A stretch of 64,000 nucleotides of DNA from Candidatus Levybacteria bacterium RIFCSPHIGHO2_02_FULL_40_18 (GCA_001782235.1 MFOC01000007.1:251909-315908), one strand, 5' to 3'; positions 17,955 through 21,589 are shown, numbered from the stretch's first letter. Made by a program: numbers and translations. The notes: generated from the letters alone by a model not told the origin.

Positions 17955-18013
17955 ACAAGAAAACGAAGGCAGCAGAGATTACCGGCAAATAAATTTGAAA
18001 CAGGAAATCGGCT

Positions 18014-18138
18014 TAGAAAATAGTTATTAGAAAACAGAAATTAGTAATGGAAAGTAGAAAATAGAAAACAGTTTTAAGGAGCCAATTTCCAATATCTAAT
18101 TTCCATACCATTTTCCAATTTCTCATAACCAATTTCTT
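18014..18138. repeat. MITE-like inverted-repeat element, copy B, ending 3 nt before the nth ATG
   Basis: Same arms as copies A, C and D. Confidence 0.6.
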
Positions 18139-18140
18139 CA

Positions 18141-18782
18141 ATGGATACTAAGATTAAAGCGCTAAGGATTACTCGTGAATTAAAAAAACTTTTTCCTACC
18201 ACAAAGACTGCATTAGAATATAAAACAGCTTTTCAATTATTGGTTGCGGTTGTTTTATCAGCGCAGACGACTGATAAAAAAGTAAACGAGGTAACTTCAC
18301 GCTTGTTCGCTAAGTTTAAGACAGCGCAGGACTTTTCGAAACTCTCTCAATCAGAACTCGAACCGTATATAAAAAGCATTGGCCTATATCGCGGGAAGGC
18401 AAAAAATATAATTGCGGGGGCAAAAGTTATTTCGGAGAAATACGACGGTGAAATTCCTCGTTCGATGAAAGAAATGACAGCGCTTCCTGGGGTGGGACGC
18501 AAAACCGCAAATGTTGTTTTGGGAATGGTTCATGGTGTGGTCGAAGGAATTGCGGTTGATACACATGTTCGTCGCCTTGCTCAGTTGTTCGGCCTCTCGA
18601 AAAGTTCGAATCCCGACATTATAGAACGCGATCTTATGTCGATTCTCCCAAAAAAAGAATGGCGGGAATTCACATTTCGCATGATCGACTATGGCCGCAA
18701 ATATTGCCCCGCCTCCTGCAAACATATAAACTGCCCACTTCGAAAATATATTACTCGTTACTCGACTCGAGAGCGAGAGTAG
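18141..18782 (+). CDS. nth: endonuclease III (HhH-GPD DNA glycosylase)
   Basis: HhH motif LPGVGRKTANVVL. C-terminal Cys cluster CPASCKHINC has only 3 Cys visible. Confidence 0.8.
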   Translation: MDTKIKALRITRELKKLFPTTKTALEYKTAFQLLVAVVLSAQTTDKKVNEVTSRLFAKFKTAQDFSKLSQSELEPYIKSIGLYRGKAKNIIAGAKVISEKYDGEIPRSMKEMTALPGVGRKTANVVLGMVHGVVEGIAVDTHVRRLAQLFGLSKSSNPDIIERDLMSILPKKEWREFTFRMIDYGRKYCPASCKHINCPLRKYITRYSTRERE

Positions 18783-19584
18783 GTGGGAAGCTAATCCACC
18801 CTCCAGGTGTACTAGCTTGACACCCTTTCTTTTTTCCTGCAAACTCTATATATGGCAACCAATAGGCGCTTGGTGTTTAGCAACGGATACATCTATCATA
18901 TCTTTAATCGCGGCATAGATAGACGCAGCGTCTTCACGGGATTTCGGGAATACTTAAGAGCACAAGAGTTAATAGAGTTTTATAAACATCTCGAAACCCC
19001 CGTAAGATATTCAAAATTTCTGCAACTGTCGAAAAGTCTCAGAGATGATGTGTTAAGAGAGATTAATAAGAGCGAGACACAGGTTGATATTTTAGCCTAT
19101 TGTCTTATGCCAAATCATTTTCATTTTATGCTCCAGCAAAAGGTAGACAAAGGGGTCTCTACTTTTATTGCAAACTTTACGAACGCTTATACAAGGTATT
19201 TTAATACTAAGCATGAGAGGATAGGCCCCATGTTTGAAGGAATATTTAAAGCTGTGTTAGTTGAAAGCGATGAACAATTAATTCATCTCTCTCGGTATAT
19301 ACACCTCAACCCGGTTGTATCAAGTATTATTAACGAATCAGACCTCAACAATTATAAGTGGTCTTCGTATCATGAATATATCGCCCCCTCAAAAAACAGC
19401 ACCGTTTCTAAGAGGGATCTGGTTATGTCAATGTTTGAATCTGCAAAACATTACGAGAAATTTGTTCTTGATCAAATTGAATATGGTAAGAAACTCGAGA
19501 TAATCAAGCATTTAACATTAGAATAGTCGCGTTTAAATAAATGAGGTAAAGAGTATGTGGCAAGCTAATCCACCCTCCAGGTGT
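18783..19584 (+). mobile_element. IS200/IS605-family-like insertion (tnpA only) bounded by 28-bp direct repeats
   Basis: GTGGGAAGCTAATCCACCCTCCAGGTGT at 18783-18810 and GTGGCAAGCTAATCCACCCTCCAGGTGT at 19557-19584 (27/28 identical). Each carries short hairpin potential. The repeats flank a Y1 HUH transposase gene, and the left one starts 1 nt after the nth stop. Confidence 0.6.
18852..19526 (+). CDS. tnpA: Y1 HUH transposase (IS200/IS605 TnpA / RAYT-like)
   Basis: HUH motif YCLMPNHFHFML, catalytic Tyr motif YIHLNPV and N-terminal YHIFNRG. Confidence 0.7.
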   Translation: MATNRRLVFSNGYIYHIFNRGIDRRSVFTGFREYLRAQELIEFYKHLETPVRYSKFLQLSKSLRDDVLREINKSETQVDILAYCLMPNHFHFMLQQKVDKGVSTFIANFTNAYTRYFNTKHERIGPMFEGIFKAVLVESDEQLIHLSRYIHLNPVVSSIINESDLNNYKWSSYHEYIAPSKNSTVSKRDLVMSMFESAKHYEKFVLDQIEYGKKLEIIKHLTLE

Positions 19585-19597
19585 CAGCATATCAGCA

Positions 19598-19693
19598 TTT
19601 GCCTATAGAATGATCGACTACGGCCGAGTCTACTGTCCTGCAACTTGTCGCCACAACGATTGCCCTCTCAGAAAGTTTATAAATAAAAAATAA
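19598..19693 (+). pseudogene. diverged duplicate of the nth 3' end (encodes ..FAYRMIDYGRVYCPATCRHNDCPLRKFINKK*)
   Basis: About 70% nt identity to nth codons at 18690-18782. Lies just right of the element's right repeat. The frame opens only 2 codons before the homologous segment. Confidence 0.55.
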
Positions 19694-19738
19694 TTCGAAC
19701 CTGTTCGTGCTTGCGAATACGTTTGCCGAAGGGCTATA

Positions 19739-21589
19739 ATGGTTGAGCGTATGAAAGCAGGACAAATCGTTGATGAATACATAAAATTTTTCGAAGAACG
19801 TGGGCATGTTAGAATTTCAAATTCGCCTCTGGTTCCTGAGAATGATCCAACTACGTTATTTACGTCTTCCGGCATGCAGCCGCTCGTTCCATATCTTTTG
19901 GGAGAACCGCACCCTCAAGGAAAAAGGTTAGTTAATGTTCAGAATTCATTTCGCGCGCAAGACATAGATGAAATAGGCGATAATCGGCATACAACATTTT
20001 TCAGAATGTTGGGGAATTGGTCGCTCGGCGATTATTTTAAAAAAGAAGAAATCCCATGGCTCTTTGAATTTTTAACCAAAAAGTTAAATATAAATCCTGC
20101 AAAACTATACGTGACTGTGTTCGATGGATTCGAAAAAATAAAACGCGATATTGAATCAGAAAAAATATGGCGGACATTGTTCGAATCCGTGAATTTAAAT
20201 CCTGACGAACGTACTTTCTTTTATGGAGCTGATAAGAATTGGTGGTCTCGCGCCGGCGAACCAAAAGATATGCCGGTTGGCGAGCCGGGAGGTCCGGACA
20301 CAGAAGTATTTTATCAATTTGATGTTTCGCACGATGAAAAATTCGGAAAAACTTGTCATCCAAACTGTCAATGCGGGAGATTTTTGGAGATTGCGAATTC
20401 TGTTTTTATGCAATACAAAAAAACCAAAAATGGGTTCGAAGAATTGCCGCAAAAAAATGTTGACTTTGGAGGAGGCCTTGAGAGACTTATTGCAGCAACT
20501 GAAAACCAGCAGGATATTTTCCAAACTTCTTTATTCGCGCCAATTATTACGACCATCGAAAACACAACCGCCAAGAATTATGCTTTGAATCAAAAGGAAA
20601 TGAGAGTAGTCGCCGACCACATGATCGCATCGGTATTTATAATAGCAAACAATGTTCGACCCTCTAATAAAGAACAGGGGTACATATTGCGAAGACTCCT
20701 GCGGAGAAGTTTTGATAATTTTGATTTGTTGAACGGCGAGGATATCAATTCGGTCCTTGAAAAAATTATTGATCAATACAAAGATACGGATGACTATCTG
20801 GTCGAGAAATTCGCGTTAATTAAAAACGTTATTCTTGAAGAAGGACAAACTTACAAAAGAACATTATCGGAAGCAAAAAAATTTATCCGCAAGAAATACC
20901 CTTCGACAGGCTCAGAGCGAGCTGGATCAATGGACGAGATAAAAGGAACGACCGAAATCTCAGCTGAGGATGCGTTTTCATTATATACGTCGCATGGTCT
21001 TTCGCCCACTCAAATAGAAAGCTTAGGTTTTACTTTCGATCGTCAAAAATTTGCTGGTTTGATGGGAAAACATCAAAAAATTTCTCGCGCCGGGGCAAAA
21101 ACAAAGTTTGCCGGAGGCCTTGCTGACCATTCGGAGGCAACAATTAAAGGTCATACTGCTACACACCTTATGCATCAAGCTCTTCGAGACGTATTGGGGA
21201 ATCAAGTTCATCAAACAGGTTCGAATATCACAAGCGAACGCGTTCGTTTCGATTTTAATTTTGAAAGGAAGTTGACAGAAGAGGAACGTCGTAAGGTAGA
21301 AGAAATAGTTCGGCAAAGAATAAAAGAAAATCTTCCGGTTCATTTTGAGATAATGCCCTTGTCGAAGGCAAAAGAAATTGGGGCGATCGGATTATTTGAT
21401 GAAAAGTATCAGGAGAAGGTGAAGGTATATTTTGTGGGGGGTCCCGAACCTGGTTTGGATAAGGCCTATTCGGTGGAGTTCTGTGGAGGTCCTCACGTGC
21501 GTTTTACAGGCGAGATCAAAAGTTTTAAAATAATAAAGGAGGAGAGTCTTGGTAAAAACAACAGACGAATATACGCAGAAGTCGAATAA
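19739..21589 (+). CDS. alaS: alanine--tRNA ligase, compact form without C-Ala domain
   Basis: N-terminal class II AlaRS core (GDNRHTTFFRMLGNWSLGDYFK). Editing-domain motifs TATHLMHQAL and CGGPHV. 616 aa. Confidence 0.8.
   Translation: MVERMKAGQIVDEYIKFFEERGHVRISNSPLVPENDPTTLFTSSGMQPLVPYLLGEPHPQGKRLVNVQNSFRAQDIDEIGDNRHTTFFRMLGNWSLGDYFKKEEIPWLFEFLTKKLNINPAKLYVTVFDGFEKIKRDIESEKIWRTLFESVNLNPDERTFFYGADKNWWSRAGEPKDMPVGEPGGPDTEVFYQFDVSHDEKFGKTCHPNCQCGRFLEIANSVFMQYKKTKNGFEELPQKNVDFGGGLERLIAATENQQDIFQTSLFAPIITTIENTTAKNYALNQKEMRVVADHMIASVFIIANNVRPSNKEQGYILRRLLRRSFDNFDLLNGEDINSVLEKIIDQYKDTDDYLVEKFALIKNVILEEGQTYKRTLSEAKKFIRKKYPSTGSERAGSMDEIKGTTEISAEDAFSLYTSHGLSPTQIESLGFTFDRQKFAGLMGKHQKISRAGAKTKFAGGLADHSEATIKGHTATHLMHQALRDVLGNQVHQTGSNITSERVRFDFNFERKLTEEERRKVEEIVRQRIKENLPVHFEIMPLSKAKEIGAIGLFDEKYQEKVKVYFVGGPEPGLDKAYSVEFCGGPHVRFTGEIKSFKIIKEESLGKNNRRIYAEVE

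Follow-up and report, generated by a model that had tools for sequence, protein, structure and literature searches.

Described systems and the locus under study

The closest described relatives of the element treated here are the TIRYTs of Di Nocera et al. 2013 (PMC3733652), which have been equated (PMC6006769) with subclass 2.1 of the TnpA-Y1 proteins of Quentin et al. 2018 and with Group 1 of the REP (repetitive extragenic palindromic)-associated tyrosine transposases (RAYTs) of Bertels et al. 2017 (PMC5581495). Proteins of subclass 2.1 have a median length of 238 aa and carry the motifs NH[YF]H or NHVH, Y[IV][HE]LNP, and SS after the Tyr helix; the IS200 TnpA proteins of subclass 1.1 consist of the core only, at ~150 aa, with the Tyr motif Y[IV]ENQ (PMC6006769, Table 1). 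Class-2 genes were reported mainly from large genomes (PMC6006769). TIRYT genes have terminal inverted repeats (TIRs) within tens of bases, which can be partly self-complementary and whose solo and dimeric copies are moderately abundant (PMC3733652), and the 16-mers flanking RAYT Group 1 genes number ~12 per replicon (PMC5581495). Here we analysed a stretch of 64,000 nucleotides (hereafter the window) from a metagenome-assembled genome (MAG) of Candidatus Levybacteria (GCA_001782235.1 MFOC01000007.1:251909-315908), a member of the Patescibacteria or candidate phyla radiation (CPR), in which a gene for a Y1 HUH protein stands between the repair gene nth and the alanyl-tRNA synthetase gene alaS. 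An earlier note, made from the sequence alone, had read the region as an IS200/IS605-like insertion at the 3′ end of nth. In the reading that we prefer, with a probability of about 0.65, the region is a single-copy ~0.8-kb cassette made up of a class-2 Y1 HUH endonuclease of the RAYT/TIRYT kind and its cognate repeat, similar to a TIRtron or REPtron rather than to a classical IS200.

A class-2 Y1 protein

The open reading frame (ORF) at 18852..19526 on the plus strand encodes 224 aa and matched the Pfam family Y1_Tnp (PF01797) with an E-value of 3.6e-10 (40.5 bits vs a gathering cut-off of 23), confirming the earlier note in that a true gene for a Y1 HUH enzyme lies where nth ends, with cognate repeats on either side of it. 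The narrower assignment to an IS200-type TnpA did not hold. The protein reached 14 bits against the IS200 equivalog NF033573, failing its cut-off of 55, and its best NCBIfam family was the REP-associated tyrosine transposase (REP_Tyr_transpos, NF047646), with 46.9 bits and thus below the cut-off of 80. The motifs NHFH, YIHLNP and WSS (W170-S171-S172) are those of class 2 and, like the length, fit subclass 2.1; H89-F-H91 and Y149-IHLNP are invariant across 60 relatives, and N153, P154 and S171-S172 are further invariant residues. The AlphaFold (AF2) model (pLDDT 89.6) found its top PDB match by Foldseek in E. coli TnpA-REP bound to the REP hairpin (4er8_A, TM-score 0.71), ahead of the IS608 and ISDra2 transposases. 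This structural comparison was more informative than a sequence profile search of the PDB, which gave weak ISDra2 matches only, while the PHROGs collection returned a single marginal 'transposase' match. The protein had also been called unusually long, which is true by the measure of IS200, but its length is normal for class 2.

Relatives of the protein fall into 7,606 database clusters, and those listed are almost all 222-225 aa long; the named ones are mostly from Levybacteria, Daviesbacteria or other Patescibacteria, and across the CPR phyla, genomes have more than 586 loci with a gene of this kind. Comparison with the locus L007 gave a proportion of nonsynonymous differences (pN) of 0.09 against a proportion of synonymous differences (pS) of 0.79, indicating purifying selection on the Y1 gene. 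Outside the CPR, plasmid 'transposases' of R. rubrum and P. aeruginosa (L127 and L128) are 28-31% identical to the protein and have the key residues in common, and their genes are flanked by perfect TIRs of 19 and 32 nt with GGGGTCAG and GGGGACAG. Relative to these two, the CPR protein has an insertion of ~25 aa (residues ~37-75) and a C-terminus ~40 aa shorter, and no Pfam match at E<=0.1 was found in it for a C-terminal helix-turn-helix (HTH)-like domain (Bac_DnaA_C, HTH_23 or HTH_28).

Two observations concern other members of the family. One Microgenomates genome (JBAZXP010000001.1) holds two divergent members 19 kb apart (L047 and L048), 39-41% identical to the query and each with a different flanking palindrome, which parallels genomes with several RAYTs, each with its cognate repeat. 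Several distant members have the locus-specific hairpin a third time, within the Y1 coding sequence (L074:3446, L080:3423, L093:3459, L055:5305, L043:3182 and L062:1714), mostly around codons 150-165 and directly after RYIxLNP, reminiscent of the REP insertions inside tnpA-REP genes of subclass 2.4.

Palindrome-tipped ends and solo repeats

All the sequence features of the earlier note were recovered at their positions, including the pair of 28-mers that bounds the cassette (18783-18810 and 19557-19584, 27/28 identical), which occurs exactly twice in the 64 kb and never in shuffled sequence. The true repeat is 35 nt long (18776-18810 vs 19550-19584, 33/35 identical) and takes in the nth stop codon. 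The left copy (18776..18810, plus strand) consists of AGAGTAG, an arm X (GGTGGGAAGCTAAT, 18782-18795) and a 15-nt hairpin core CCACC-CTCCA-GGTGT (18796-18810), and is followed at 18811..18835 on the same strand by an arm X′ (ACTAGCTTGACACC, the reverse complement of X) and a T-rich run. The right copy (19550..19584, plus strand), which represents the canonical right end, consists of AGAGTAT, arm X (TGTGGCAAGCTAAT, 19556-19569) and the hairpin core (19570-19584). A profile built from 30 motif copies detected only these two copies in the window, plus a weak nhmmer match on the reverse strand at 18813-18832, within the X′ segment. Within the window, X′ (18811-18824) is complementary to the right-hand X (19556-19569) at 11/14 positions.

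Comparison with close relatives shows what the ends normally look like. In the Levybacteria subgroup, the canonical left end is the hairpin CCACC-CTCCA-GGTGG, X′ (TCTAGCTTGACACC) and a T-rich run, and the canonical right end is AAAGAGTA, X (GGTGGGAAGCTAAT) and the same hairpin as at the left. Because X′ is the reverse complement of X, the ends are ~30-bp terminal inverted repeats tipped by a palindrome; hairpin plus X′ at the left against X plus hairpin at the right was found in the window and nine relatives, and in L014 and L015 the TIRs are full, with even the loop inverted. X′ and the T-run are kept in all the left ends aligned, while arm X is missing from the left ends of most relatives, and the complete X-hairpin-X′ left end was found in the window, L011 and L101. 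The left end of the window, [AGAGTAG-X][hairpin][X′], joins a unit of the right-end type to a normal left end, and the left repeat agrees with the right end of the L007 cassette at 34/34 nt. The 35-nt direct repeat results from this composite left end, so the direct subterminal hairpins previously taken as a mark of the IS200/IS605 mechanism reflect an atypical left end.

The hairpin potential ascribed to the repeat was not borne out for the copies in the window. Their DNA-fold z-scores range from -0.5 to +0.2, no better than shuffled sequence, and their perfect stems are 4-5 bp long (p 0.3-0.8); a G-to-T change at both ends has cut the stem to this length, so that folding is no better than chance. 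Together, X, the hairpin core and X′ form a ~45-nt palindrome at the left end that resembles an intrinsic terminator after nth, but its nested fold of -9.5 kcal/mol was no better than those of shuffles, and a simple terminator scan did not flag it. A terminator hairpin is described for IS200, and the hairpin and T-run at the left end here may recall it. A hairpin is supported at the level of the family only. Nearly all the relatives that were examined have palindromes close by on both sides of the gene; in 56 loci, perfect stems average 7.2 bp at the left and 8.1 bp at the right, vs 4.3 bp in shuffles, and the palindromes lie ~5-47 nt 5′ of the ATG and 0-45 nt 3′ of the stop codon, with sequences that vary by locus. 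In terms of the TIR motif, GGTG[GTC][GC]AA fits GGGGWSAS at 5-6/8 positions; distant CPR members carry AGGGGTTGA and AAGGGTCAGA, and the two plasmid comparators fit GGGGWSAS exactly. GTAG precedes GGTG at the left end of the window, but the bases 5′ of GGTG vary among the 30 motif copies, and thus there is no conserved 5′ GT[AG]G. In the distant CPR members L058, L061, L066, L069, L070 and L073, the Y1 flanks are long double palindromes with two inverted hairpin copies (e.g., ACAAGGTTCGACCTTGTGCAAGGTCGAACCTTGT), resembling REPIN doublets.

The repeat also occurs on its own. When metagenome contigs were scanned for exact matches to the pattern AAGCYAATCCACCCTCCRGGTG, 30 stretches were returned, with the cognate Y1 gene immediately upstream in five distinct contexts and absent from ~20 others, hundreds to thousands of bases upstream included. 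These solo units are mostly intergenic, often lying between convergent genes or 6-35 nt past a stop codon; a tRNA gene precedes one of them and mreB another, and full X-hairpin-X′ units are among them (L108, L110, L118 and L124). L110 has flanks of the type expected at a junction of right and left ends (RE-LE), together with a remnant of the 5′ end of the Y1 gene, and looks like a decayed RE-LE junction. Elsewhere in the family, four extra out-of-gene copies of locus-specific hairpins were found in ~318 kb, and the rough density of solo units is about one per 50-100 kb. This pattern is REP/TIR-like dispersal, and is similar to the ~12 copies per replicon given for the 16-mers that flank RAYT Group 1 genes (PMC5581495). 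The earlier note had named a motif that occurs at gene ends without tnpA as a reason to give up its reading; such copies do exist in related genomes, in the ~20 contexts above. A gene-less motif is expected of a RAYT/TIRYT-type system, so what changes is the class assignment, while the element itself stands.

Solo units have further features at two loci. Four tandem copies of GGTGGCGATCAC(A) come immediately after the unit at L120:6543-6640; they are seeded on the 3′ arm of its hairpin. At L125:15-1885, two units in the same orientation, 1.8 kb apart, enclose small accessory genes (XRE-type HTH, zinc-ribbon and others) and no Y1 gene.

Taken feature by feature, the cassette resembles the TIRtrons and TIRYTs in its motifs, a length of ~230 aa, close flanking TIRs, solo repeats and low gene copy number, and the plasmid comparators at 28-31% identity have a matching architecture; the match to the subclass is at the motif level only. 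It differs from them in its host, a CPR bacterium with a genome of ~1 Mb, in the ~25-aa insertion and the missing ~40-aa C-terminal extension with its HTH-like domain, in a repeat (GGTGNSAA) that only partly fits GGGGWSAS, and in the Levybacteria hairpin loop, which is not inverted between the ends, the left end of the window having in addition an extra right-end arm. E. coli TnpA-REP (4ER8) provides the best structure match, the best NCBIfam profile and the same Tyr motif Y-x3-NP, and, as in REPtrons, a single-copy gene is framed by a short palindromic unit that is also dispersed in spacers, often after gene ends. The differences from REPtrons are that the protein stays below the equivalog cut-off, that no conserved GT[AG]G stands at the hairpin foot, that the repeats seemingly number tens per genome rather than hundreds, and that their orientation around the gene is not the same. 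With IS200, IS608 and ISDra2, the cassette shares the Y1 HUH fold, a compact size of ~0.7-0.8 kb and, at family level, hairpins at both ends, but it departs from them in having Y-x3-NP and not Y-x3-Q, 224 rather than ~150 aa, no tnpB, a single gene copy within the 64 kb and inverted end arms, and in failing NF033573. By its motifs and architecture, the best description is a CPR branch of the TIRtron/REPtron class, one that fails both equivalog cut-offs and is without the C-terminal domain of subclass 2.1.

Two nth termini at a polymorphic locus

The gene upstream of the cassette, nth (18141..18782, plus strand), encodes a 213-aa protein of the endonuclease III family (Pfam HhH-GPD, 9.2e-24, and HHH), and the left repeat contains its last codons and its TAG stop codon (18780-18782). 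Among 120 listed homologues, only those that share the reading '...TRERE' before the stop extend as far; the others stop 5-8 residues sooner. The resident 3′ end of nth, tail A (18672..18782, plus strand, ending in TFRMIDYGRKYCPASCKHINCPLRKYITRYSTRERE), is orthologous to the tails of close relatives, with 23-26/27 residues identical to those of the closest nth homologues. On the other side of the cassette, after a junction filler (CAGCATATCA, 19585..19594, plus strand; read from the sequence as part of a CAGCAT-AT-CAGCAT micro-duplication) with no counterpart in aligned relatives, lies a relic of an nth 3′ end, tail B (19595..19693, plus strand, ending in AFAYRMIDYGRVYCPATCRHNDCPLRKFINKK), which is still in frame and has its own TAA. 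A tblastn search with the nth tail matched it at 19598-19687 (20/30 aa, E ~1e-12), so the relic that had been noticed is significant, although its in-frame identity to tail A is 60% (52/87 nt; 19/29 aa) and not the ~70% given before.

Between the two tails pS is ~1.0, which is saturated, and pN is 0.23. Saturated synonymous sites with low pN imply that both tails evolved inside working genes in different lineages, and divergence under purifying selection fits inter-lineage recombination better than local duplication. The terminus of tail B, KFINKK before the stop, is common to the nth proteins P0127, P0138 and P0144, all of them intact. From the 3′ part of tail B through the spacer into the first codons of alaS, the window matches L095 at 117/127 positions (~92%), and in L095 this sequence ends an intact nth, while the window and L095 are 74-78% identical elsewhere. 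As in L095, tail B passes directly into the spacer (19694..19750, plus strand), in which there is a promoter-like site, TTGCGA-18-TATAAT (19711-19740), and which leads to alaS (19751..21589, plus strand; start placed at MKAGQ, as in called genes). Judged by these sequence comparisons, tail B has its provenance in the terminus of an nth gene of this type and belongs with the alaS upstream region. We favour its being the displaced original nth terminus, one of the two options raised in the earlier note, and tail A with its repeat would have been joined in by recombination. Recombination through the shared hairpin would account for the composite left end as well.

The nth-alaS locus is polymorphic among relatives. 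It is filled in the window and in L007 (Y1 protein 84% identical), where nth is followed by an extra reverse-strand ORF, a truncated left end, the Y1 gene and a right end that does not differ from the left repeat of the window over 34 nt. It holds a solo unit in L094, in which nth ends '...ITRERE' at a TAG directly 5′ of the unit, with the junction as in the window and no Y1 gene, and in L100 and L106, in which nth is reduced to its first 12 and last ~12 codons around the unit. It is empty of the motif in L096, with an unrelated gene between nth and alaS, and in L095, where nth is followed directly by the start of alaS. In L100 (2300-2520, minus strand) and also L106, the repair gene nth has thus been lost at a solo repeat between CofD and alaS. 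In L095 (3680-4077), alaS is broken after codon 8 and runs into an unrelated ORF that would encode a membrane protein; up to this break, 130 nt are near-identical to the window in genomes otherwise ~75% identical, suggesting recent exchange or a mosaic. A homologue 82% identical (L008) lies in an unrelated genomic context, as do others (L011, L099-L112). No nth-tail relic was found beside other family members, so that a relic is no general property of the family and nth no general target. Compared with L094, L095, L096 and L007, the nth gene of the window shows a uniform identity of 71-78% and no clear breakpoint that would mark it as chimeric.

In the assembly collection, 33 blocks list the exact 224-aa protein. 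All 24 contigs read with it, ENA and JGI among their sources, have identical neighbours wherever flanking DNA is present, and the relic is carried by all of L001-L006. An assembly chimera was considered and is ruled out by these constant neighbours, which show that the arrangement is real and that the Y1 gene sits at one site. Rfam gave no match, either over the whole window at gathering scores or in the region at E<=1, and the window has no tRNA genes, which excludes RNA genes and known structured RNAs as sites of integration.

Further observations concern nth and its upstream side. Canonical endonuclease III has a 4Fe-4S motif C-x6-C-x2-C-x5-C. The nth proteins of this clade (window 18700-18760; P0121-P0240) have three Cys and a His in the tail, arranged as C-x3-C-x-H-x2-C (e.g., CPASCKHINC), and in some relatives the second Cys is replaced by His (P0164, CPARHSHTDC). 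The spacer between CofD and nth (window 17960-18140) is AT-rich, and repeated units of GAAAAYAG and CCAATTTCCA build a long imperfect palindrome in it.

Proposed history and alternative explanations

If it works like TnpA-REP and IS608, whose structures are solved, the Y1 protein would bind the single-stranded 15-nt hairpin (CCACC-loop-GGTGG) together with the neighbouring arm GGTGNSAAGCTAAT, and would cut and rejoin DNA via Tyr149, with a metal held by His89, His91 and Asn153. The cassette itself may have moved occasionally; more often, probably by mobilisation in trans, solo copies of the repeat would have been spread or maintained, settling in the spacers at gene ends. For the locus in the window we infer a history in which the cassette first inserted into nth, 5′ of its last ~30 codons, in one lineage. 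Recombination would then have followed with an nth allele in which a solo repeat was already the terminus, of the kind seen in L094; through crossovers in the body of nth and in the shared hairpin, nth would have regained its full length, with the old tail remaining as a relic.

The main competitor is the classical autonomous IS200/IS605 element, in which TnpA excises a single-stranded circle by way of direct subterminal hairpins and pastes it, here into the 3′ end of nth. The Y1_Tnp match with its HUH and Tyr motifs, the 15-nt hairpin core standing in direct orientation at both ends, the close homologues in differing contexts (L008, L011, L099-L112) and the coexistence of filled and empty sites at nth-alaS are all what such an element would show. 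We nevertheless hold it to be unlikely, since the protein misses the cut-off of the IS200 equivalog (14 vs 55 bits), has Y-x3-NP where Y-x3-Q would be expected and 224 aa rather than ~152 aa, and is structurally closest to TnpA-REP; the arms beside the hairpin are inverted as in TIRs, the gene is single-copy wherever this could be checked, and many solo motifs occur in related contigs. Peel-and-paste transposition, moreover, proceeds without target duplication and cannot yield two synonymously saturated tails, which a simple insertion as first supposed therefore leaves unexplained. The notion of a local tandem duplication of the nth 3′ end, for instance during insertion, followed by divergence of the unused copy, would deal with the second tail in another way. 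It draws on the tails flanking the cassette like a long target duplication and on the confinement of the relic to this lineage, but is contradicted by the synonymous saturation between the tails, with pN at 0.23 pointing to an origin of both in working genes, by the ~92% identity of the end of tail B and the spacer to an intact nth end in L095 when the genomes are otherwise 74-78% identical, and by the match of tail A to the tails of the closest nth orthologues; we rejected it as very improbable.

About as unlikely as the autonomous element is a fully domesticated, immobile host gene, a vertically inherited, housekeeping-like CPR factor whose repeats are gene-end hairpins or terminators that it binds or processes, with the relic coming from an unrelated rearrangement. 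Strong purifying selection and near-constant length (223-225 aa) across Levybacteria and Daviesbacteria, the single copy, the position between nth and alaS kept in L007 at 84% identity, the motif so often directly past stop codons, and the terminator-like X′ and T-run of the left end would all suit it. Set against this are the 82%-identical L008 and other homologues in unrelated contexts, nth-alaS-syntenic relatives without the gene (L095, L096) or with the solo motif only (L094, L100), the L110 remnant resembling a decayed RE-LE junction with the 5′ end of the gene, and the two divergent copies in some genomes (L047/L048). Several points also count against the single-copy RAYT/TIRYT-like cassette that we prefer. 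Its protein lies under the curated RAYT equivalog cut-off (46.9 vs 80 bits) and is without the C-terminal HTH-like domain described for subclass 2.1, and its Y1 activity is putative. The hairpin is degraded at both ends, so the cassette may be inactive. Solo copies were seen solely in other, related contigs, the 64 kb containing only the two flanking ones, and the exact 22-mer search is biased to conserved copies. L095 is itself rearranged at alaS, which breaks after codon 8, and the identity between its nth tail and the 5′ half of tail B is no more than 74.5%, which makes the direction of exchange uncertain. The three-step history is the most economical, yet one of several that fit: 5′-flank transduction, or homology-facilitated illegitimate recombination anchored at the alaS side, would fit likewise.

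Implications for the CPR

The cassette, of which the exact protein was found in this context alone and the motif in only two copies within the 64 kb, is real, but among semi-domesticated mobile elements it belongs to a known class, of which it is a fairly ordinary case, and it is no new kind of system. Its interest lies in the host and in the junction. Literature text searches for RAYT or IS200 in CPR found nothing relevant; RAYT/TIRYT enzymes and their repeats have been studied almost solely in Proteobacteria, Cyanobacteria and Bacteroidetes, and here the corresponding architecture is very common in CPR genomes of ~1 Mb. The locus is a clean natural case in which a repair gene has taken its last codons and its stop from a repeat unit, and the old nth end, being still readable, is useful for dating and modelling recombination between CPR lineages. 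A broader and speculative proposal, which we consider improbable as it stands, is that single-copy RAYT/TIRYT enzymes and their hairpin repeats form a conserved semi-domesticated system in ultra-small Patescibacteria, in which the repeats would serve both as movable gene-end modules that bring a stop codon and a terminator with them and as recombination joints for swapping gene 3′ ends, here that of nth, between lineages. If true, this would extend REP/RAYT-type biology to the CPR, with a role in mosaic gene evolution.

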